Part shown: in pieces, positions 4,974 to 29,302 of the stretch
Layout: each line of letters opens with the position of its first letter
Numbering within the stretch: position 1 is the first letter of the stretch
Origin: Candidatus Schekmanbacteria bacterium RIFCSPLOWO2_02_FULL_38_14
GTDB lineage: Bacteria; Schekmanbacteria; GWA2-38-11
NCBI GenBank assembly: GCA_001790855.1
Contig: MGDH01000001.1
Location: forward strand, 79,427 to 108,728
Length of the DNA: 29,302 bases
Direction: 5' to 3'
Notes under the pieces: generated by a model
What the model saw: only the letters and a program-made list of their open reading frames with translations
What the model was told of the DNA's origin: nothing
The model's database searches: none
Made by a program: the position numbers and the translations under genes

Positions 4974-6920
<1,947 letters not shown>

Positions 6921-10777: not shown

Positions 10778-12976
10778 TTAACACAGTTTTTTGATTTTAT
10801 TCAAAAGCGCAATATTATCAGAATGGCCTGAGAACCTTGCTGTTATTCTTCCTTTTACAGGCCTGCCAAGAAGGTAAAAATCTCCTATTATGTCAAGAAT
10901 CTTATGTCTTACAAACTCGTTGTTAAACCGCAATTCAGTGTTGATAACTTTTTCATCATCAAGGAGTATTGCGTTGTTTATTCTTCCGCCGCTTATATAT
11001 CCCTTTTTTTCCAACAGTTCAACATCCTTCAGGAAGCAAAAGGTTCTTGCAGGAGCTATTTCTTCCTTGAAATTTATCACATTCTTTAAAACAAAAGTAA
11101 ATTCCTGGTGACCGATGGGCTTTGGATAGTCCATTGTGTAATGGATAGAAAATTCAGGTGCAGGCTCTATGGATATGTATTTTCCCTTAGGGTCGCCAAT
11201 AAAATATGTATCATCTATGATAATTTCTTCAACATATTCATCCTGTTCCTCCAGTCCGCCGTCTTCGATTAGCTCGCAGAAGTCCTTTGCAGAACCGTCC
11301 ATTATAGGGACTTCATCAGAGATTTTTATAAGAAGGTTATTTATTCCGTATATATGAAGTACAGCCATTATATGTTCTACAGTTTTAGCCTGGCTTTTGC
11401 CGCTCCTGAGAGATGTAGCGAACTCTGTTGATTCTACGTAGTCAAGAAATGCCGGAACTGTTTCTCCTGTTGAAATATTGCCAAAGGTTATGCCTGAGTT
11501 CGGAGGCTGGGGAATCAGAATCAATCCTGTCTTAAGACCTGAATGAAGTCCCTGACCGCATAGCACAACACTTGTTTTCAGAGTTTTCTGGCGTCTTTTG
11601 TTTAATGCTTTTGTTTTTCCAATGTTAATGCTAAGGGTTTTTACCTTGCGCTCAAGACTGCGTTTTCCAAGGGAAATAACCCTTGCAGTTTTTGACATGT
11701 CCCATTCATTTTTTTTAAGGTGATAGGCAATAAATTCCTTTTCCCATGCAGTCTGGGCTTCTTTTAATGATGAGTATCCTTCAAAACGATATGAAGAGCC
11801 ATCTTTTTTCTCTCCTTTTATTCCTGCAGGGATATCATTAAAAGTGACTTTAGCCATTGGCACGGTTATTACGAGCCTTTCAATGATGTTTTTCAGTTCC
11901 TTCACATTACCGGGCCAGTTAAAAACGCTCAGAGCTACCATTGCCTCATCATCAATCTCTTTTATATTTTTACCATATTCCTCACAAAATTCTTTCATAA
12001 AATAGTTTGCAAGCAGTGGAATGTCATCCCTTCTGTCTCTCAGTGATGGTGAAAAAAATGAGATTTCTGTGAGGATTTTATAAAATTCCGGGTCGAAGTT
12101 GCCAAGCCTGACTTCTTCTGACATGTCTTTGTTTGAAGCAGCAATGAACCTGAAGTCGATGGGGATATTCTTTTTCCCGCCTGTTCGCTTCAATTTCTTG
12201 CTTTCAAAAACTTCTATAATCTTTTTCTGTATCCCGGGACTGATTTTATCCACTTCATCAAGGAACAAGGTGCCTCCTTCTACTATTTCAAATTTTCCTC
12301 TTTTGAAGGTTTCTGCTTTTTGTGAACTCTGATCCTCAAATCCAAAAAGCTGTGATTCAAGAGTATTTTCTGCAAGTATGGAACAATTGATTTTAATAAA
12401 AGGTTTGCTGCGGCGTCTGCTTTCAGCGTGAATTACCCTTGCAATGAGTTCCTTGCCGGTTCCGTTTTCACCTGTAATCAGGATATTCTTATTTGTTTCA
12501 TATGCGTTTTTAATCTTACGGCGCATTTCTGCAATTAAAGGATTTTCTCCAATGATTTCATGCTTTCTGATTAGCTCCTTTTTAAGTTCAAGGTTTTCCC
12601 TTATAAGCCTTTGCTGTTCTATGGCGTGGGTAATGGTTGTGAGAACATTTTCAAGAGAGAGAGGCTTTTCTATGAAATCAAATGCTCCAAGTTTTGTAGC
12701 CCTCACTGCAGTATCTATGCTTCCGTGTCCTGACATTATTATGACCTCAAGGTCTGACTGGAATTCCTTTACTGTCTTGAGAACCTCAATGCCATCAAGT
12801 CCCGGCATCCAGATATCAAGAAGGATTACATCAGGAGAAATTGATTTGACAAGCTCAAGGGCCTGGGTTCCGTTTTCTGCCATTGAGACATCATACCCTT
12901 CATCAGTCAGAATCCCTTCAAGGGTTGTACTGATGCTTGGTTCATCATCTACAATCAATACATGTCCTTTTCGCAT
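10778..12976 (-). CDS. single ORF fusing an NtrC/NtrX-family response regulator (REC, sigma-54-type AAA+ with degenerate GAFTGA, Fis-type HTH) to a complete UDP-3-O-acyl-N-acetylglucosamine deacetylase (LpxC) domain
   Basis: Likely start ATG 12976 (MRKGHVLIVDDEP) with RBS AAGAGGA; the track ORF extends to 13015. REC: LIVDDE...D (LLDIWMPGLDG)...K. AAA+: Walker A GENGTGKE, Walker B LFLDEVD, R-finger RDRRDDIP. HTH: WDMSKTARVISLGKRSLERKVK. Then the same frame, with no stop and no in-frame ATG/GTG/TTG, continues into KRRQKTLKTSVVLCGQGLHSG...TVEHIMAVL...EVPIMDGSA...ARTFCFLKDVE...GGRINNAIL...EFVRHKILDIIGDF...GHSDN, which is unmistakably LpxC (minus 11587-10781). Confidence 0.8.
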   Translation of the reverse strand: MRKGHVLIVDDEPSISTTLEGILTDEGYDVSMAENGTQALELVKSISPDVILLDIWMPGLDGIEVLKTVKEFQSDLEVIIMSGHGSIDTAVRATKLGAFDFIEKPLSLENVLTTITHAIEQQRLIRENLELKKELIRKHEIIGENPLIAEMRRKIKNAYETNKNILITGENGTGKELIARVIHAESRRRSKPFIKINCSILAENTLESQLFGFEDQSSQKAETFKRGKFEIVEGGTLFLDEVDKISPGIQKKIIEVFESKKLKRTGGKKNIPIDFRFIAASNKDMSEEVRLGNFDPEFYKILTEISFFSPSLRDRRDDIPLLANYFMKEFCEEYGKNIKEIDDEAMVALSVFNWPGNVKELKNIIERLVITVPMAKVTFNDIPAGIKGEKKDGSSYRFEGYSSLKEAQTAWEKEFIAYHLKKNEWDMSKTARVISLGKRSLERKVKTLSINIGKTKALNKRRQKTLKTSVVLCGQGLHSGLKTGLILIPQPPNSGITFGNISTGETVPAFLDYVESTEFATSLRSGKSQAKTVEHIMAVLHIYGINNLLIKISDEVPIMDGSAKDFCELIEDGGLEEQDEYVEEIIIDDTYFIGDPKGKYISIEPAPEFSIHYTMDYPKPIGHQEFTFVLKNVINFKEEIAPARTFCFLKDVELLEKKGYISGGRINNAILLDDEKVINTELRFNNEFVRHKILDIIGDFYLLGRPVKGRITARFSGHSDNIALLNKIKKLC

Positions 12977-13039
12977 AATATTTTCCTCTTTAATCAATTT
13001 ATTAAAAAAATACAACTGTATTTTTAGAAAAAATCTTAT

Positions 13040-13222
13040 AATGAACTACCCCGCAGCAGAGCTGCGAGGTATCAAAGTCTTAGAACTAATTGCAATTACC
13101 TGTCATTCCGGGCTTGACCCGAAATCCAGTTTTTTGTCTCTAGATTCCCGCTTTCGCCTGCCTGCCGGCAGGCGGGAATGACAATAAATACTAATTGTAC
13201 CCCGAAGCAAAGCTTCGAGGAA
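13040..13222. repeat. composite palindromic intergenic element: two direct hairpin repeats flanking an 84-bp family-A-like palindrome
   Basis: 13041-13062 CCCCGCAGCAGAGCTGCGAGGT and 13200-13222 CCCCGAAGCAAAGCTTCGAGGA are direct repeats whose differences are compensatory within the stem. Between them GTCATTCC...GGAATGAC (13097-13180) encloses CGGGCTTGACCCG and ATTCCCGC-tttcgCCTGCCTGCCGGCAGG-CGGGAAT. Confidence 0.6.
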
Positions 13223-13318
13223 TTTTTTGATTAAAAAATAACAAAGGGTAGGGGAGGCTTTAGCCTGCCCTGCCTTTCTAATAGTTATAAGTCATTAGTT
13301 ATAAGTTCTCAGTTAATT

Positions 13319-15532
13319 CTACCTCGCAGGCAGTTCTATTACAAAGGTTGTTCCCTGAGGCTCATTATCCTTTACCCGTATATAACCGTTATGCTCTGAA
13401 ATAATTGTATTTACGATTGCAAGCCCCAAACCTGTTCCCTGCTTCTTTGTCGAGAAATATGGCATAAAAAGTTTTTCTCTAAGATAAAAAGGAATCCCTA
13501 TACCTGTGTCAGATACTTCTATCTTTACAATCTGGAAATCTGATACATACTTTGTTTTGATAAATATTCCTCCGTGCCCTTTCATCGCCTCTATGGCATT
13601 TTCAAGAAGGTTGATGAAAACCCGTTTTATCTGCTCCGGGTCCAGATGAAGCAGCGGAACTTTTTCTGAAAACTCTGTTTCAATAGTTATGTCCTTCAGG
13701 GTTCCCCTGTAAAGCGCTATGGCTTCGTTTATTATGTCATGAAGATTGGTCGGGAGCGGACTTGAAGTGGGCATTCTTGCAAACTGGGAAAACTCATTAA
13801 CCATTTTTTTAATGTCATCAACTTCCTGTATTATTATATTTGTGCAATCCTCAAGGACTTCTCCCATATCTTCTGCTTTTGACTGGAATTTTTTCTTCAG
13901 TCTCTGTGCTGAGAGTTTTATTGGGGTTAAGGGGTTTTTTATTTCATGGGCGATTCTTCTTGCAACCTCTCTCCACGCAGCGACTCTCTGCGCCCGTATT
14001 AGTTCTGTAAGATTATCAAGCACTATAACCATGCCAAGATAATTTTCCTGACTGTCAAAGAGCATATTGATATTTGTCATGAATATAAAAACCTCTCCGT
14101 CAATGTTAAGGTTTATTTCTTTTTCAAGGCTTCTTGCGTTGTCATCAAGTATCTGAGAGATAATTTTCTTCAATGTTTCAAAATGCTTAATGCCAAATAC
14201 TTCTGTGTAGTGTTTGTTCATAGTATCATTTTCATTGGCATGGAGCATGTTTTCTGCTGCCTTGTTTATGGTTGATATATTTCCATTATTATCAAGAGAG
14301 ATAACACCTGTTGTTATGTTTTCAAGAACAGTTTCCATGTAAGTTCTCTTCTGTTCCAGCTCAATATTGGTATTTTTAAGGCTTATGTTTTTTTCCTCAA
14401 GGTCAGCCTTGTTTTTTTTTAGTCTGTCAGTCATCTGGTTAAATGAGCTGACAAGGACTCCTATTTCATCCTGGCTTTCAGGGTCTGGTTCAAGGTCAAT
14501 ATGAAAGTCAAGGTTTCCTCCGGCAATTTCTTTTGTCCCTTCAGCAAGTTGCTGAATAGGACCTGTTATGCCCTTTGCCATTTGAAGCCCGAACCACATT
14601 GCAGCAAAGATAATCAGTATAGTAACAATAGCAAACATTGCGATGTAGTTGTTGGCAATTGGTCTTTTAAGAATGTTTTTTTCCCTGTATTCCTTGTATG
14701 CGAGGTTTATTGATTTTATGTCCTCAGAGATTCCTTTTGGCAGGTAAAAGCTTGTTGCAACTGCGCCAATTATGTGGGTTTTATCTCCATGGGCTTTAAT
14801 TGGAGTAATTCCAATAATTAATTCGCCTTTTCCAACAGGTTTTATTTCAGTGATTTTTTTCCCCCGAAAGGCTCTTCTCAAGAATTTTTCTCCGGGTTTT
14901 TTGAATCTGTTTTCCGGAAATTTGGGATCGAGGATTTTTACAAGCTCTTTTTTGTTTGTACTGTAGATGGAGATAGAACTTAAATTATATTCCTTGCGTT
15001 TTTCGTTTACCAGATTCTTTAAATTGTCTATTCTGCTTTTTCTTATCAGATTTTTTTCTGAGACTTCCTTGCTCATCTGCCAGCTGAAATGAAGAGCCCT
15101 GCTCTCTAAATTTTTATAGTAGCTTTCAGAAACTTCAAGCGCCACGCTCAGGGAATTCTCTATTGGAAGGCTGAACCAGTACTCTATGGTCTGGGATATA
15201 AGGACTCTTGCAAATAAAAAGAGGAGAACGGAGGGTATTATTGTAAGCAGGAAGAATGAGACAATAAGTTTTGTCCTGAATTTTGCTCCGGGAACTTTTC
15301 TCTGTCTTTCAAAATACAGCTTTACAAGGTTGCGGATTACAAGGAAAAATAAAATCAGCAGGAGGATAAAATTTATATTATAAAATGAATAAAAGATGAT
15401 GTAGTTTGCAATTGGAGAAGAAGCCTTTATGTTGCGGGTATAGACCTCTACAAAAGTGATAGCAACAAGGATGAGCAGTATTGATACAACCGTTATTATT
15501 ATTCTTCTTCTTCTGATATTTGTTTCTACCAT
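13319..15532 (-). CDS. sensor histidine kinase, NtrY-like (N-terminal membrane region, HAMP, PAS, HisKA, HATPase_c)
   Basis: 737 aa with several N-terminal TM segments. HAMP-like ...GPIQQLAEGTKEIAGGNLDF..., PAS (TGVISLDNNGNISTINKAAENML), H-box IAHEIKNPLTPI, ATPase N/G boxes (NLLENAIEAM; DTGIGIP; GTGLGLAIV). Confidence 0.85.
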   Translation of the reverse strand: MVETNIRRRRIIITVVSILLILVAITFVEVYTRNIKASSPIANYIIFYSFYNINFILLLILFFLVIRNLVKLYFERQRKVPGAKFRTKLIVSFFLLTIIPSVLLFLFARVLISQTIEYWFSLPIENSLSVALEVSESYYKNLESRALHFSWQMSKEVSEKNLIRKSRIDNLKNLVNEKRKEYNLSSISIYSTNKKELVKILDPKFPENRFKKPGEKFLRRAFRGKKITEIKPVGKGELIIGITPIKAHGDKTHIIGAVATSFYLPKGISEDIKSINLAYKEYREKNILKRPIANNYIAMFAIVTILIIFAAMWFGLQMAKGITGPIQQLAEGTKEIAGGNLDFHIDLEPDPESQDEIGVLVSSFNQMTDRLKKNKADLEEKNISLKNTNIELEQKRTYMETVLENITTGVISLDNNGNISTINKAAENMLHANENDTMNKHYTEVFGIKHFETLKKIISQILDDNARSLEKEINLNIDGEVFIFMTNINMLFDSQENYLGMVIVLDNLTELIRAQRVAAWREVARRIAHEIKNPLTPIKLSAQRLKKKFQSKAEDMGEVLEDCTNIIIQEVDDIKKMVNEFSQFARMPTSSPLPTNLHDIINEAIALYRGTLKDITIETEFSEKVPLLHLDPEQIKRVFINLLENAIEAMKGHGGIFIKTKYVSDFQIVKIEVSDTGIGIPFYLREKLFMPYFSTKKQGTGLGLAIVNTIISEHNGYIRVKDNEPQGTTFVIELPAR

Positions 15533-16629
15533 GATATCCTTGCAAACAATTTTCCTGCTTCCTGTTTAATAATCCCGTTCATTTCAAGGTTTAAAAGGAT
15601 AGCAGAAACTTTGTTAACCGGCAAATTGGACTCTTTGGCTATTACGTCAATGTGGACAGGGTTCTCGTTTATAAGAGAATATATTATTGTCTCTTCTTTT
15701 GATAAACTCAAACGGGTTTCTCTGCTTGCCTCATTGCCGGCTCCTGTTTTTGATTTTTGCGGTACATTCAGCTCGCTGATAATGTCAGAGATATCTTCAA
15801 CAAGTTTTGCCCCTTCTTTAATAAGCGAATTGGTCCCTTTGCTGTTTCTGGCATTGATATTGCCGGGTATTGCAAATACCTCTCTTCCCTGCTCAAGCGC
15901 CTGTTTTGCTGTTATTAATGCACCGCTTTTTTCAGATGCCTCAACGACAAGGGTTCCAAGGGATAAACCGCTTATAATACGGTTTCTGACCGGAAAATTT
16001 TCACGGTGAGGCGGCATTTTCATTGGGAATTCTGATATAACAGCCCCTGATGTTGAAATCCTTTCAGCAAGCCTTGAATTTTCCTGCGGATAAATCACAT
16101 TTAATCCTGAGCCAAGAACTGCAAAGGTTTTTCCTCCTTTTTCAATTGCTGTGGTATGTGCTACTGTATCAATTCCTCTTGCCATACCGCTTACTATTGC
16201 AAAGCCTCTCGCCACTAATTCTCCTGTTAATTTCTCAGTGATTGCTTTTCCATAATAGGTTGGGTTTCTTGACCCTACAATTGCAATTCCGGGTTCAAAA
16301 TCTTTAATGCTTCCTTTGACATAAAGAACAGGAGGGGGATTGTGTATTGTTTTTAAAGTTGCCGGATATTCCGGGGAATCGAGGGTTAATACCTCGACGC
16401 TGTTCTCATTTATCAGCCTCAGTTCTTCTTCAATAAGCCTTCCGTCTTTAAGAGAGATTATCTCCTTTGCAAGCTTGTCTCCGATTCCCCTGACTTTAAT
16501 AAGGTCATTATAGGAAACCTTGAGAACATTGCTTGCCGTGCCAAAGTGCTGCAGGAGTCTGGTAAACAGGATTTTTCCAATGCCTGATACCAAATTGAGG
16601 GCTATCCAGTCTTTTTTGTTGTTGTCCAT
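15526..16629 (-). CDS. dprA: DNA processing protein DprA (Smf)
   Basis: Rossmann-like core GIAIVGSRNPTYYGKAITEKL...IVSGMARGIDTVAHTTAI...GKTFAVLGSGLNVIYP... and a C-terminal winged-helix region. Overlaps the kinase start by 7 nt. Confidence 0.9.
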   Translation of the reverse strand: MDNNKKDWIALNLVSGIGKILFTRLLQHFGTASNVLKVSYNDLIKVRGIGDKLAKEIISLKDGRLIEEELRLINENSVEVLTLDSPEYPATLKTIHNPPPVLYVKGSIKDFEPGIAIVGSRNPTYYGKAITEKLTGELVARGFAIVSGMARGIDTVAHTTAIEKGGKTFAVLGSGLNVIYPQENSRLAERISTSGAVISEFPMKMPPHRENFPVRNRIISGLSLGTLVVEASEKSGALITAKQALEQGREVFAIPGNINARNSKGTNSLIKEGAKLVEDISDIISELNVPQKSKTGAGNEASRETRLSLSKEETIIYSLINENPVHIDVIAKESNLPVNKVSAILLNLEMNGIIKQEAGKLFARISW

Positions 16630-25009: not shown

Positions 25010-25010
25010 A

Positions 25011-25081
25011 CCCCGCTTCACAGCTTTACCCCTCACTGTAAAAGTGCGGGGTTTACACTCGTGGCTTCCTGTGGAGCGGGG
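25011..25081. repeat. GC-rich nested hairpins immediately after the rSAM stop (AACCCCGC...GCGGGGTT; CCCCGCTTCACAG...CTGTGGAGCGGGG)
   Basis: Inverted repeats read directly. Likely transcription terminator or REP-like element. Confidence 0.5.
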
Positions 25082-25184
25082 TGAACTTAAACCTGACTCA
25101 ACGCTTCGCTATCGCTCGTAATGTTGTTTAAGAGGATTTTTCCAGAAATTTCTCAAAGATAGTTCTGAAAAAGTCCATAGAAAG

Positions 25185-25238
25185 TCATTGCCTGCCTACC
25201 GCAGGCAGGCGATGAGCGATAGCGACGTGGCAATCTCA
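25185..25238. repeat. family-A palindromic repeat copy (GTCATTGC-CTGCCTACCGCAGGCAGG-CGATGAGCGATAGCGACGTG-GCAAT)
   Basis: Its first 26 nt are identical to the copy at 1048-1073. A partner arm CGCTTCGCTATCGCTCGTAATG lies at 25101-25121. Confidence 0.6.
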
Positions 25239-25359
25239 TATCATTCAGTATAATCATCATCATATTTTTATTGACAACTTATGCAGTTTTAGATTTGCTT
25301 TCTTTTGTCTTATAAAGTTTCACTGCCAAAAAATATCTCTTTCTTCATGAGGTATTAAA

Positions 25360-28300
25360 ATGAAAGCTGCGGGATTAAAAACAGGGTTTATTATATCTAT
25401 TTTTTTTATAATCCTGCTCTGTCCTTTCAGGCTTTTTGCCTCAGGTCCACCTGTGAGCGGGCTTCAGGTAACATTCAGTTCAGGGGTTGACCCCTATGGT
25501 AATTCGAGAATAGATGTTGATATTAGCTGGAGTCCATGGGTTTTAATGATTCAGTGTAGCCCAAACAGCCCGCCAAAAAACGCGCTGATGGAATATGTTG
25601 TTACAATTGCTACTTCAAGAGAGGTAAAGAACTGTATAAGTGGTGGCGTATCAGGAGGCGGATTTTTAAAAACCAATGAAACTAGTTATCATACCTCAAT
25701 TTCCCCCGATGCACTTTATTTTAGTGTATCAGTTTGTGCTATTCATATTTTGGAAAACTGTCAGGGCTCTACATGCTCTCCTTCTGCAGAATGGTCACAT
25801 ACTTTTTCATGTGATTACGTAGACCTTCCAAATATGCCCCATGATAACTGTACCACAAAGCTCGGGACTGCCGGAGAACCAGTAAATGTTTTTAATGGGC
25901 AGATGTATGTTACCCATACGGATTTCACTCTTCCAGGGAGAGGTCTTGACCTTAGTTTTACCCGCACTTATTCAAACAGGTTTCAAATACCTTCGCAAAG
26001 CACTCTGGTAGTATCAGGGAGTAAATCGCGCGGAGAGGCAAAATATATTGAAAGGACTAGGGTAGGGTGCCTTGTAGGTGGATATCCTTTTTCTCCTTTA
26101 ACTTTGGATAATCTTAGCAATGGAATTCCTGTTGGATACGGATGGACACACAGCTTAAGCCAGCATCTTGATTTCCTCCTTGATGGCAAGATGATAAAAT
26201 ACTTTGATGAGAACGGAACAAGTCAGTATTTTAATCAATACAAGAATGGCTCCACTGATACTTTTTATTCTCCAGCACAAAGCTGGACAACTTCAACACT
26301 TGTCAAAAACCAGGATGACACATATACAATTTCAAAAGAGGATTTACATTATAGGTTTGATTCAAGTGGCAGGCTCATAGAAATATCTGATTCTTATTCA
26401 AACCAAATATTCTTGGTATATGATGGGTCAGGCAACTTAACGACAGCTATTGATACCCTTGGCAGACAGATTACCTTTCAGTATGATGCAAACAAAAGGC
26501 TTACAAGCATCGCCGGTCCTGACGGCACGCTTGCAAGTTATGAGTATTCCCCTTTGGGGCTTCTGACAAAAGCAATCTATTCTGATAATACGAATATAAC
26601 TTACCAGTACGGCGATCCTTATGATAATATGAACCTTACAAAAATAATTGACCAGAACGGGCATAGCTATAACTACACTTATGATAATCTCGACAGAGTA
26701 ACAGAGGTTACACGTGACAATTCAAATGAGAAAATAACCTTTTCCGACTATAATACCATAAAGCCTTATTACTACTTCTATCCTCCTGATGCACCTGTAA
26801 TGTCAGCTCCAATTCAGACTACAACAGTAACCAACTCCCGCGGATATACAACAACCTATAGCTATATAACAAAAGGTAACGGATTTGAAGGCAATGGTCT
26901 TCCTTTAATGTATCAGATTTCAGGTGTTGGATGCTCAAGCTGTTCAGAAGGGAATCAGACAAATATCTGGGCTCCTGATGGAAATATGGTTAGCTCAACA
27001 GATGCAAGCGGAATGACCACAAAATACGAAAATTACGATTCAAGAGGCAATCCTGCAATCATTAAAAAAGCCTATGGAACCTCTGATGAACAGAATGAAT
27101 CCTACACATACCACCCGGTGCTGAACAGACCCATTTCTGTTACAAGGCGAAGTGTCTTAAACTCAGGCTTTAATAAGGTAACCATCTTTGACTATGACAA
27201 CGACTACGACAATATTCCAAATGAAAACCCTACATTCAGAATCTCAAGATTTGTTGAAAAGGGACTTGCAAAAAACGAAAATGGCGAAACAGAAGCCTAT
27301 GAATATGTTACAACTTATAATTACAACTCACTCGGACAGTTGCTTTCAGTTGATGGTCCAAGAACAGATGTGTCCGATGTTACAACATTTACATATTACC
27401 CTGATGACCCATTCTATGGTTACAACCGTTCCCGGCTTTTTCAGATAATAGACCCTTCAGGAAATATTTACGCCTATTCAAACTACGATATCTACAGCAA
27501 CCCCGGACAGGTTATTGATGCGAACAATGTTGCGACCAATTATACATATGATTCAAGAGGAAGATTAAAAACCATCCTTATAGAAACCAGCCTGACACAG
27601 ATTTTTTATGATCCAAAAGGAAATGTTGATTATATAATTCTACCCGAAGGCAATATCGTTGACTATACCTATGATGTTGTTGACAGATTAACAGGAATTA
27701 CAAAAATCTCTTCAGGCTCTGCTCCAATTGAATCAATCACCTATACATACGACACAGAGGGAAACAAAACCTCAGAAACCATCAGGGCAGGGGATATAAA
27801 TGGCACAATAAAAAGCCATTCCGATTTTGAATATGACCAGTGGAATAAACTGACAAAAATTATTCCTTCTGCTGATAGCCCTTCAAAGTTTTTTAAATTT
27901 TTCAATCTCCCAAATGGACCTGTTTCAAAAGAAAAAGATGGCAATACAACAGACGGCCTCTGGTCAGCAGAGTACATCTATGATTCCATGCTGAGATTAA
28001 AGCAGATAAAAAACCTTCCCGCTAATTTCATCACCGGCTTTCAGTACGATTCCCAGAATAATCTGACGCAGATAACGGACGCCAATGGCAACGCCACTAA
28101 TTACACCTATGATGATATGGGAAGGCTTGTAAGGACCCAGTCTCCTGATACAGGAGTTACTTCCTATAGCTACGATTCAGCAGGCAACCTGATTTCAAAA
28201 ACCGACGCAAAGGGTGTTACTGCAAGCTATACTTTCGATTCAGCAAACCGTTTAACAAATATTGACCTTCCGGGAACAAATGATGATATAATATTCTCCT

Positions 28301-29302
28301 ATGATTCCATATCAGTATCAAAGGGAAAGGGGCGGCTTACAGGAATGAACGATGCTTCAGGAGAAACTCTTTACTTCTATGACTCTCTTGGAAGGATTAC
28401 AAAAGAGGAAAGGGATATTGATTACCTCTCCTATGCAACAAACTACTCCTATGATAAAAATGGAAATCTGACAGGAACAATCTATCCATCAGGGATATTT
28501 GTCCATTATGCCTATGATGGCGCAGACAGAATTGCAGGGGTAACAATTACAGGAAACCAGCTAAACAGCGTGATAAATGCAGAATATATTCCATTTGGAG
28601 GATTCTCCTCCATTGCCTATGGCAACGGCGCATTAACAAATATTTCCTATGATAAGCAGTACAGAGTAGCTAATTTAGCTATAGGAAATCAGCTCTCATC
28701 ACTCAGCTACCAGTATGACAACAACAGCAACATTACAGGAATCACTGACCTGTTAGCGGCTTCAAAAACAAAAACCTTCTCTTATGATTCTCTTAACCGT
28801 CTCACCGCCTCAACACAAAACACAGGACAATATTTTCGAAACTACACCTACGACCCTGTTGGCAATAGATTGTCTGAAACTAAAAACAATAACACCACAA
28901 CCTACACTTACTCAGCCAACCGATTAACCTCTTTAACCCGAAACCCGCAAGTTGAAACCCGAAACTTCTCCTACGACTCAACCGGCAACATTACCTCAGA
29001 TGGCGAGAAAAACTTTATCTACAACCAAAGCAACAGGCTGGCAAGAGTCACAGAGAATGGAGAAACAAAAGGTGAGTATGTTTATGATGGAAGAGGAAAG
29101 AGAATCCTGAAAGAAATAAAAGGAAACTGGTTTGTTTATCATTATGATACTAATGGAAACATCATGTCTGTTTCTGACAGGAATGGAAACACCATTGCGG
29201 ATTATATCTACATTGGAAATGAACGGGTAGGAATGCTTTTGCCGGAAACTGAAACAGAGGCTTCGGGGGCGTATAAGAAAGTAGCAAGCAGCAAGGGTCA
29301 TG
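25360..29302 (+). CDS. RHS/YD-repeat protein (polymorphic-toxin/teneurin-like) with signal peptide and Cys-rich N-terminal domain; 3' end outside window
   Basis: RBS GAGGT 7 nt before ATG 25360. Signal peptide MKAAGLKTGFIISIFFIILLCPFRLFASG. I translated the whole frame to 29302 and found no stop (>1310 codons). RHS N-terminal hallmark LPGRGLDLSFTRTYSNR, then dozens of YD repeats (YxYDxxGRL, e.g. YRFDSSGRLIEI, YQYDANKRLTSI, YTYDNLDRVTEV, YTYDSRGRLKTI, YTYDDMGRLVRT, YSYDSAGNLISK, YTFDSANRLTNI, FYDSLGRITKE, YSYDKNGNLTGT, FSYDSLNRLTAS, YTYDPVGNRLSE, FSYDSTGNITSD, YVYDGRGKRILK). Confidence 0.9.
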   Translation, partial: MKAAGLKTGFIISIFFIILLCPFRLFASGPPVSGLQVTFSSGVDPYGNSRIDVDISWSPWVLMIQCSPNSPPKNALMEYVVTIATSREVKNCISGGVSGGGFLKTNETSYHTSISPDALYFSVSVCAIHILENCQGSTCSPSAEWSHTFSCDYVDLPNMPHDNCTTKLGTAGEPVNVFNGQMYVTHTDFTLPGRGLDLSFTRTYSNRFQIPSQSTLVVSGSKSRGEAKYIERTRVGCLVGGYPFSPLTLDNLSNGIPVGYGWTHSLSQHLDFLLDGKMIKYFDENGTSQYFNQYKNGSTDTFYSPAQSWTTSTLVKNQDDTYTISKEDLHYRFDSSGRLIEISDSYSNQIFLVYDGSGNLTTAIDTLGRQITFQYDANKRLTSIAGPDGTLASYEYSPLGLLTKAIYSDNTNITYQYGDPYDNMNLTKIIDQNGHSYNYTYDNLDRVTEVTRDNSNEKITFSDYNTIKPYYYFYPPDAPVMSAPIQTTTVTNSRGYTTTYSYITKGNGFEGNGLPLMYQISGVGCSSCSEGNQTNIWAPDGNMVSSTDASGMTTKYENYDSRGNPAIIKKAYGTSDEQNESYTYHPVLNRPISVTRRSVLNSGFNKVTIFDYDNDYDNIPNENPTFRISRFVEKGLAKNENGETEAYEYVTTYNYNSLGQLLSVDGPRTDVSDVTTFTYYPDDPFYGYNRSRLFQIIDPSGNIYAYSNYDIYSNPGQVIDANNVATNYTYDSRGRLKTILIETSLTQIFYDPKGNVDYIILPEGNIVDYTYDVVDRLTGITKISSGSAPIESITYTYDTEGNKTSETIRAGDINGTIKSHSDFEYDQWNKLTKIIPSADSPSKFFKFFNLPNGPVSKEKDGNTTDGLWSAEYIYDSMLRLKQIKNLPANFITGFQYDSQNNLTQITDANGNATNYTYDDMGRLVRTQSPDTGVTSYSYDSAGNLISKTDAKGVTASYTFDSANRLTNIDLPGTNDDIIFSYDSISVSKGKGRLTGMNDASGETLYFYDSLGRITKEERDIDYLSYATNYSYDKNGNLTGTIYPSGIFVHYAYDGADRIAGVTITGNQLNSVINAEYIPFGGFSSIAYGNGALTNISYDKQYRVANLAIGNQLSSLSYQYDNNSNITGITDLLAASKTKTFSYDSLNRLTASTQNTGQYFRNYTYDPVGNRLSETKNNNTTTYTYSANRLTSLTRNPQVETRNFSYDSTGNITSDGEKNFIYNQSNRLARVTENGETKGEYVYDGRGKRILKEIKGNWFVYHYDTNGNIMSVSDRNGNTIADYIYIGNERVGMLLPETETEASGAYKKVASSKGH

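Follow-up and report, generated by a model that had tools for sequence, protein, structure and literature searches.

A response-regulator receiver domain joined to LpxC in Candidatus Schekmanbacteria and other phyla, a putative signalling input to lipid A synthesis

LpxC is the enzyme that commits the Gram-negative cell to lipid A synthesis. In a 29,302-nt stretch of Candidatus Schekmanbacteria bacterium RIFCSPLOWO2_02_FULL_38_14 (contig MGDH01000001.1, positions 79,427 to 108,728; hereafter the window), we found a gene which encodes in one polypeptide a response-regulator receiver domain (REC), an AAA+ module of sigma-54-activator ancestry, the remnant of a Fis-type helix-turn-helix (HTH) and a full-length LpxC. 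The fusion is real and old and is not an assembly artefact. Best read, the gene would let a two-component system act directly on lipid A flux. We consider it fairly probable that the protein is a response regulator with LpxC as output, in which a dedicated lpxC regulator was fused to its target and transcriptional control was replaced by direct control through phosphorylation. With slightly better than even chances, LpxC is more generally the output of an unrecognised class of response regulators, which occurs as REC-(degenerate AAA+)-(HTH remnant)-LpxC, REC-HTH-LpxC and REC-LpxC and which came from an lpxC-dedicated sigma-54 regulator fused to its target.

The features of the fused gene, in window coordinates, are as follows.
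10778..12976 (-), whole fused coding sequence: 732 aa plus stop; REC, degenerate AAA+, HTH remnant, linker and LpxC
12985..12988 (-), Shine-Dalgarno GAGG, 8 nt 5' of ATG 12976, from direct reading of the sequence
12632..12961 (-), REC domain, residues 6-115 (Pfam PF00072 Response_reg, 5.9e-32, 110.6 bits)
12062..12556 (-), AAA+ core of sigma-54-activator ancestry, residues 141-305 (Pfam PF00158 Sigma54_activat, 4.8e-48)
11798..12040 (-), AAA+ lid, residues 313-393 (Pfam PF25601 AAA_lid_14, 1.3e-24)
11636..11767 (-), Fis-type HTH remnant, residues 404-447, three AlphaFold2 helices
11591..11635 (-), Lys/Arg-rich flexible linker, residues 448-462, from the codon list, a low predicted local distance difference test (pLDDT) score and variability in homologues
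10790..11590 (-), LpxC domain, residues 463-729 (Pfam PF03331 positions 1-267 of 268, 2.6e-81)

The frame is read from ATG 12976 to the stop at 10780-10778 without any internal stop. An in-frame TTG upstream (13015) was rejected as the start because homologues, whose N-termini read M-x-K-G-H-I-L-I-V-D-D-E, begin at the Met equivalent to ATG 12976. A preliminary description of this DNA had reported one uninterrupted frame across all parts, a complete LpxC at the C-terminal end and a linker with no in-frame start codon, and each of these was borne out. Codons 446-463 (11641-11588) contain no ATG, GTG or TTG in the in-frame codon listing. The LpxC part covers 267 of the 268 positions of PF03331 (273.5 bits against a cutoff of 27), passes the NCBIfam lpxC equivalog TIGR00325 (237.3 bits against a cutoff of 187.25), matches Aquifex aeolicus LpxC (1xxe) at 1.9e-49 and keeps all catalytic and zinc residues. 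The linker itself stands, at a length of about 15 residues rather than the 18 first given. A free LpxC translated from an internal start was considered and rejected: the linker has no start codon, and the GTG at residue 471 (11566-11564) lies inside LpxC strand 1 without a Shine-Dalgarno sequence. In the homologues aligned at the HTH-LpxC junction, no conserved Met was found.

The polypeptide stops 3 residues past the LpxC domain and has no C-terminal extension. It is not a bifunctional LpxC/FabZ (NF009667, 215.4 bits against a cutoff of 465; no FabZ domain in Pfam). The best NCBIfam match of the N-terminal part is NtrX (NF051870), with 401.8 bits, under the cutoff of 600. AlphaFold2 modelled the protein with a pLDDT of 83.8 and a predicted template modelling score (pTM) of 0.49; the domains are confident, the linker is of low confidence at residues 448-459, and pLDDT falls below 50 at residues 454-457. 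By each sequence criterion examined, the fused protein belongs to the LpxC family and is also a bona fide receiver-domain protein.

Homologues were searched among 5.8 billion proteins clustered at 90% identity. At least 120 clusters (the count is a lower bound) carried the same four Pfam domains, with 41-91% identity and 98-100% query coverage; they were drawn from ENA, JGI, NCBI and Logan assemblies, on contigs including ones of 2.15, 2.31, 2.86 and 4.24 Mb. The closest cluster, 91% identical, includes Candidatus Schekmanbacteria proteins such as OGL40300.1. Through a locus scan with one genome per species, we found the full fusion at about 35 species-level loci in Nitrospinota, Thermodesulfobacteriota, Desulfomonilaceae, Syntrophaceae and others, including two closed Nitrospinota chromosomes (OZ253582.1 and OZ252246.1). 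The lineages with the fusion are overall Schekmanbacteria, Nitrospinota, Tectomicrobia and Thermodesulfobacteria-type. Public annotation calls the fused proteins "UDP-3-O-acyl-GlcNAc deacetylase" or "NtrX", and these names hide the fused architecture.

Across independent assemblies the junction is kept as the HTH remnant, a Lys/Arg-rich linker of varying length and sequence, and then Q-K/R-T-L-K-x-S-V-V-L-C-G-Q-G-L-H-S-G. The assembly error at the junction that had first been left as an alternative is excluded by the independent homologue clusters, some on contigs of 2-4 Mb, and the probability that an assembly or frameshift artefact joins two neighbouring genes is negligible. The same junction motif recurs in the clusters and in both closed chromosomes, and in related loci with separate genes the lpxC stands 5' of a kinase gene and not 3' of the regulator, so that loss of a stop codon cannot yield the fusion. 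The frameshifts which we did meet, in three long-read loci from metagenome-assembled genomes (MAGs), split the fused gene rather than join two.

In these three loci (L023, L027 and L030), the frameshifts make two overlapping open reading frames (ORFs) of the fused gene and fall in REC in L023 and L030 and in AAA+ in L027, away from the regulator-LpxC junction; they are probably sequencing or assembly errors or pseudogenes. A complete fused gene was also detected on a short low-coverage contig (L011, JAIWHJ010000348.1, 3163 nt) binned as a "Promethearchaeota archaeon" MAG; most likely the contig is bacterial and was wrongly binned, and the LpxC is not an archaeal one.

The residues for phosphorylation and catalysis were compared in 121 fused proteins. 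The window REC has the complete quintet D10, D11, D54, S82 and K104. The phospho-acceptor D54 (codon 12817-12815) is present in 120 of the 121 proteins. No variation occurs at D11 and K104; at position 10, 118 proteins have Asp and three have Glu, and position 82 is always Ser or Thr. In LpxC, the residues E534, H535, T645, H691, K692, D695, D699 and H718 are invariant in all 121, and the motifs TVEH, ARTF, HKILDIIGD and GH of the window protein align with the same motifs of A. aeolicus LpxC 1xxe. From the structural literature, we take the aligned residues to be the His/His/Asp zinc ligands, the catalytic Glu and His, and the Thr and Lys substrate contacts.

Mean pairwise identity by region was compared between 31 fused proteins and 46 unfused relatives from the same scan. 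REC diverged equally in the two sets (0.59 fused, 0.61 unfused), whereas the AAA+ core fell to 0.27 in the fused set against 0.71 in the unfused, the AAA+ lid to 0.33 against 0.46, and the HTH to 0.16 against 0.58; LpxC, which has no unfused counterpart in this comparison, stood at 0.60. Since REC divergence is the same, the low identity of AAA+ and HTH points to relaxed constraint in the fused proteins. On the sequence comparison, REC and LpxC are the constrained parts of the fused family.

The motifs of the AAA+ module agree with this picture. At the GAFTGA position the window protein holds DQSSQKAETF (residues about 213-226, nt 12299-12340), and the position is variable and indel-rich across the 121 fused proteins, while the 46 unfused relatives have G-A/S-F-T-G-A. 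The FRxDLyyRL motif has become FDPEFYKIL, with both arginine fingers lost in the window protein and family-wide. The sensor-II Arg is replaced by Lys (WPGNVKELKN), as in 115 of the 121 fused proteins, whereas all 46 unfused relatives have Arg. The window protein still has Walker A (GENGTGKE), Walker B (LFLDEV) and the sensor I Asn; Walker A is kept family-wide, and the Walker B Glu is found in only seven of the 121. The unfused relatives, with few or no exceptions, have every lost motif, the recognition helix ERSNLHRKIK included. The best PDB matches are NtrC4 and NtrC1, and the alignment also took in Brucella NtrX. Pfam thus upholds the sigma-54-activator ancestry that the preliminary description had assigned, while the activator type itself does not hold: because GAFTGA and the arginine fingers are missing, the window AAA+ module is, judged by its motifs, not a working sigma-54 activator. 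The retained Walker A hints that the module may still bind nucleotide, in a structural or regulatory role.

The HTH shows a similar state. AlphaFold2 predicted helices at residues 404-422, 427-433 and 438-447, but at E<=0.01 Pfam gave no match of the window protein to HTH_8 (PF02954). When scored with a profile built from unfused HTHs, the region reached 48 bits, the highest among the fused proteins, compared with 71-103 for the unfused HTHs. HTH_8 was matched in four of 120 fused clusters, and several fused members have lost the HTH by deletion.

Relatives without the AAA+ part were revealed by a search with the LpxC part only, among 1.84 billion representative proteins. Its best matches were all N-terminally extended and stood clearly above ordinary standalone LpxCs. 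REC-LpxC proteins of 419-461 aa, in which AAA+ is absent by Pfam and domain mapping, include P0146, P0147 and P0153; taken up to 483 aa, the short forms are P0128, P0136, P0141, P0142, P0144-P0148, P0151-P0154, P0157, P0160, P0164, P0167, P0173 and the gene at L081 853-2115, which is followed by three HSP20 genes. Two proteins of 491-505 aa are REC-HTH-LpxC (P0131 and P0137), and the AAA+ domain of the 650-aa P0123 is shrunken. Direct motif checks showed that most short relatives retain the EH, HKxxDxxGD and GH motifs and the REC aspartates. Because REC-LpxC and REC-HTH-LpxC proteins exist, the AAA+ part is dispensable. The tethers of REC-LpxC proteins are about 22-70 residues long, variable and of low complexity. 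The AlphaFold2 model of P0147 (pLDDT 86.4, pTM 0.66) has two confident domains and a disordered segment at 122-143; confident domains with low-confidence linkers, as in P0147 and the window protein, are compatible with tethered-domain regulation. In a rough neighbour-joining tree, fused-type LpxC domains group together with only few standalone sequences, and several short forms nest among long forms. The nesting would fit the AAA+ remnant having been lost more than once, on a rough tree which does not support an order of long and short events.

The unfused relatives suggest where the fusion came from. They were found in Desulfuromonadales, Geobacter, Syntrophales, Methylomirabilota, Rokubacteria, Acidobacteriota and one Verrucomicrobiia MAG, and the closest of them are canonical sigma-54 regulators with GAFTGA. 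In 40 of 46 aligned loci the gene directly 5' of the unfused regulator encodes an NtrY-like kinase that belongs to one family with the window kinase; the kinases of the unfused loci scored 322-696 bits, six of them being either cut off at a contig end or divergent at the N-terminus. A standalone lpxC stands just 5' in at least 24 of the 47 unfused loci, giving the order lpxC, kinase, regulator (L035, L037-L040, L042-L044, L046, L047, L049, L051, L054, L057, L058, L060, L061, L063, L064, L071, L076-L078 and L080); these belong to Desulfuromonadales, Syntrophales, Methylomirabilota, Rokubacteria and the Verrucomicrobiia MAG.

Sigma-54 promoters were scanned with the consensus TGGCACG-N4-TTGCW at a threshold of at least 10/12. 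A match was found in 18 of the 21 full-length standalone lpxC genes scanned, at -23 to -87 from the start codon; as background, random 380-nt pieces cut from these loci reached the threshold in 1.1% of cases. Upstream of the fused genes none of 32 reached 10/12, the window gene included.

A similar system has been described in Desulfovibrio. In D. vulgaris, lpxC is the single target of the sigma-54 regulator DVU2934, which binds nowhere but upstream of this gene; the authors noted orthologues in Geobacter and Acidobacterium and, in S. fumaroxidans, an lpxC immediately 5' of the orthologous operon (PMC3333781). Likewise, lpxC is the only gene controlled by the kinase Dde_3000 and the regulator Dde_3003 of D. 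alaskensis, via a sigma-54 promoter (PMC4045070). In Alphaproteobacteria, loss of NtrYX raises lpxC mRNA about 9-fold and lipopolysaccharide about 2-fold (PMC7240162, PMC12444477). The lpxC-kinase-regulator cluster would extend the lpxC-specific system of Desulfovibrio to several phyla. The most economical history would be that a two-component system dedicated to lpxC transcription was fused to its own target. A rearrangement, and not mere loss of a stop codon, was needed, because lpxC is 5' of the kinase in the unfused loci and 3' of the regulator in the fused ones.

The window retains a kinase of this kind. The NtrY-like membrane sensor kinase claimed upstream in the preliminary description was recovered by Pfam.
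13319..15532 (-), NtrY-like sensor histidine kinase (Pfam NtrY_N, HAMP, PAS, HisKA, HATPase_c), directly 5' of the fused gene
It is the likely cognate partner of the fused protein. The same kinase family lies directly 5' of the fused gene in 12 other loci, frameshift-split in two of them; fused loci with an adjoining kinase include L001-L004, L008, L009, L015, L022, L023, L030 and L032. In two Desulfomonile-like MAGs (L017 4164-13195 and L025 4178-13171) the fused gene is directly 3' of CheA, CheB and a hybrid kinase, where CheA is Hpt-HATPase-CheW-REC and the hybrid kinase has three REC domains, which suggests that the fused gene may there be the output of a chemosensory-type pathway.

We might therefore picture the following course. 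The ancestor would have had an NtrY-like kinase and a sigma-54-dependent activator controlling lpxC transcription, and the activator would have been joined to its own target lpxC. After the fusion, the sigma-54 loop, the arginine fingers, Walker B in most lineages and the HTH would have decayed or been deleted, with REC and the LpxC active site remaining constrained. In the present protein, D54 would be phosphorylated by the NtrY-like kinase, the presumed phosphodonor, and a change in receiver conformation or dimerisation would be passed to LpxC, the gating by phosphorylation being deduced from conservation alone. The signal could reach LpxC by way of the vestigial AAA+/HTH scaffold; in the short relatives it could run along a disordered tether. 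The activity, substrate access or stability of LpxC would then be altered and lipid A flux set post-translationally, either upwards or downwards.

Several other explanations should be weighed. It is unlikely that the protein is bifunctional, with an NtrX-like sigma-54-independent DNA-binding regulator as its N-terminal module and LpxC merely co-translated without allostery. Brucella NtrX likewise lacks GAFTGA in our alignment and acts as a transcription factor despite this, and the window protein, with the best preserved HTH of the fused set and with Walker A, Walker B and sensor I kept, is the member that would suit such a role. But the same HTH escapes Pfam, the domain is poorly conserved family-wide and matched in few clusters, several proteins have deleted it, and REC-LpxC relatives carry no DNA-binding part at all; moreover, an uncoupled fusion surviving across phyla is unlikely. 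Less probable still is a working sigma-54-type AAA+ ATPase that oligomerises on phosphorylation, so that ATP-driven ring assembly controls LpxC. The preliminary description had proposed phosphorylation-driven oligomerisation as the coupling, and Sigma54_activat and AAA_lid are indeed clearly detected, NtrC4 and NtrC1 are the nearest structures, Walker A is kept family-wide and Walker B in the window protein. This coupling now appears unlikely, given the loss of GAFTGA, of both FRxDLyyRL arginines and of the sensor-II Arg in the window protein and the family, the family-wide decay of Walker B and of core identity, and the missing AAA+ domain in the REC-LpxC relatives.

Enzyme-derived sensor domains occur in other regulators, and the LpxC domain could by analogy be a non-catalytic sensor of UDP-3-O-acyl-GlcNAc which reports the level of lipid A precursor, with a separate LpxC as the catalyst. 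We regard this as very improbable. All 121 proteins have the same zinc ligands and catalytic residues, the TIGR00325 equivalog cutoff is passed, and no second lpxC was found within 10 kb of any fused locus. As the output parts of the regulator have decayed, nothing would be left for an LpxC sensor to control.

Some observations weigh against a receiver-gated LpxC. The AlphaFold2 models, with pTM of only 0.49 and 0.66, give no confident interdomain geometry and do not show REC touching the LpxC active site, and we therefore draw no inference on occlusion of the active site. The fused genes of Nitrospinota have no histidine kinase within 10 kb (orphan loci L005-L007, L010, L012-L014, L019, L031 and L041); in L010 the fused gene has as neighbours the genes for GreA, a TrmB-like methyltransferase, a PurN-like formyltransferase, LolA and an RseP-type protease. 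Of all the fused proteins, that of the window has decayed least: it retains Walker A, Walker B and sensor I together with an HTH that can still be recognised, and it may keep a residual nucleotide- or DNA-binding role. Finally, the orthology of the Desulfovibrio regulators with our unfused relatives is deduced from taxa, synteny and promoters and not from sequence.

The kinase and the fused gene are separated in the window.
12977..13318 (-), kinase/fused-gene spacer, 342 nt, with three GC-rich hairpins like repetitive extragenic palindromic (REP) elements
A terminator-like hairpin lies at 13071-13047 in this spacer. In L001 the two genes overlap and there is no spacer. GC-rich palindromic REP-like elements were found in the window at 1048-1075, at 25184-25211 and at about 13047-13220; a 28-nt copy, GTCATTGCCTGCCTACCGCAGGCAGGCG, is present twice and exact in the window, and the spacer is filled by a related hairpin and two hairpins of the CCTCG..GCTTCGGGG type. 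On the other side, dprA (15526-16629, minus strand) overlaps the kinase gene start by 7 nt. The order dprA-kinase-fusion is also present in L001 (6647-9986, 56% identical), and because the window and L001 have this order in common, co-transcription of dprA with the kinase gene is suggested.

Two other genes of the window were noted. A surface-type protein with CarboxypepD_reg and IPT/TIG domains is encoded at 4974-6920 (plus strand), and its gene contains four tandem repeats of about 240 nt and an (ACA)n poly-threonine run at about 6126-6240. A long ORF begins at ATG 25361 (plus strand) and continues past the window end at 29302; it has a signal-peptide-like N-terminus and YD/RHS-type repeats. 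An apparent 4-kb ORF-free stretch at 25010-28990 was considered as RNA and rejected, being covered by this long ORF and giving no Rfam matches.

If the proposed control is true, envelope homeostasis would have a new mode, open to direct testing, in several phyla that have been little studied, among them the marine nitrite-oxidising Nitrospinota, and a large group of NtrY-like kinases would gain a likely role in sensing lipid A or the envelope state. The family would also present an evolutionary case of a regulator fused to its target, with the sigma-54 loop, the ATPase and the HTH lost stepwise, up to full deletion.

Known control of LpxC is almost entirely Proteobacterial: proteolysis by FtsH/LapB/YejM in E. 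coli, activation of LpxC by MurA binding in P. aeruginosa, Lon in some Alphaproteobacteria, and transcriptional effects of NtrYX or ChvGI (PMC12444477, PMC13333357). Two reviews dedicated to LpxC regulation (JBC 2025 and JBC 2026) mention neither a fusion nor a receiver domain, nor any control of the LpxC protein itself by a two-component system (PMC12444477, PMC13333357). In open-access papers and bioRxiv we found no report of a REC-LpxC fusion or of LpxC as a response-regulator output, in agreement with the early impression that an NtrC-family fusion to LpxC was undescribed. The fused LpxC family is conserved and apparently undescribed.

Compared with known systems, the Desulfovibrio lpxC system (DVU2931/DVU2934; Dde_3000/Dde_3003) resembles the unfused relatives in having a kinase and an NtrC-family regulator dedicated to lpxC. 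It differs from the window in acting on transcription with separate proteins; in the window the regulator is covalently joined to LpxC, and the sigma-54 loop, the arginine fingers and the sigma-54 promoter are missing. NtrY/NtrX of Alphaproteobacteria (Brucella NtrX, PDB 5m7n) shares with the window protein a REC-AAA+-HTH layout without GAFTGA and an NtrY-type kinase partner. Brucella NtrX, however, keeps the FREDL..RL arginines and carries no LpxC, the window protein stays below the NtrX cutoff, and its closest unfused relatives have GAFTGA, unlike NtrX.

Proteobacterial control of LpxC by proteolysis or activation acts, as would the window system, on the LpxC protein itself at the committed step. 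It uses separate partners or a C-terminal degron, whereas in the window the regulatory module is in the same polypeptide and the C-terminal end is not extended. LpxC-FabZ (NF009667) is the other widespread LpxC fusion in public annotation; there LpxC is followed, on its C-terminal side, by an enzyme that acts in the same pathway, while in the window protein it is preceded by an N-terminal signalling module.

By analogy, the fused protein would work most like the response regulators with enzymatic output, such as CheB, PleD, WspR and RpfG, in which a receiver is likewise tethered to a catalytic domain. In CheB the unphosphorylated REC inhibits the enzyme, and phosphorylation relieves this inhibition. 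The CheB-type layout of REC, flexible linker and enzyme is strictly found in the short REC-LpxC relatives of 419-461 aa, whereas the window protein has a vestigial AAA+/HTH spacer of roughly 330 residues between REC and enzyme. The output of the window family differs from those of CheB, PleD, WspR and RpfG in being a lipid A biosynthetic enzyme, and a receiver-gated LpxC would thus represent a new mode of LpxC control within the known type of receiver-gated enzymes.

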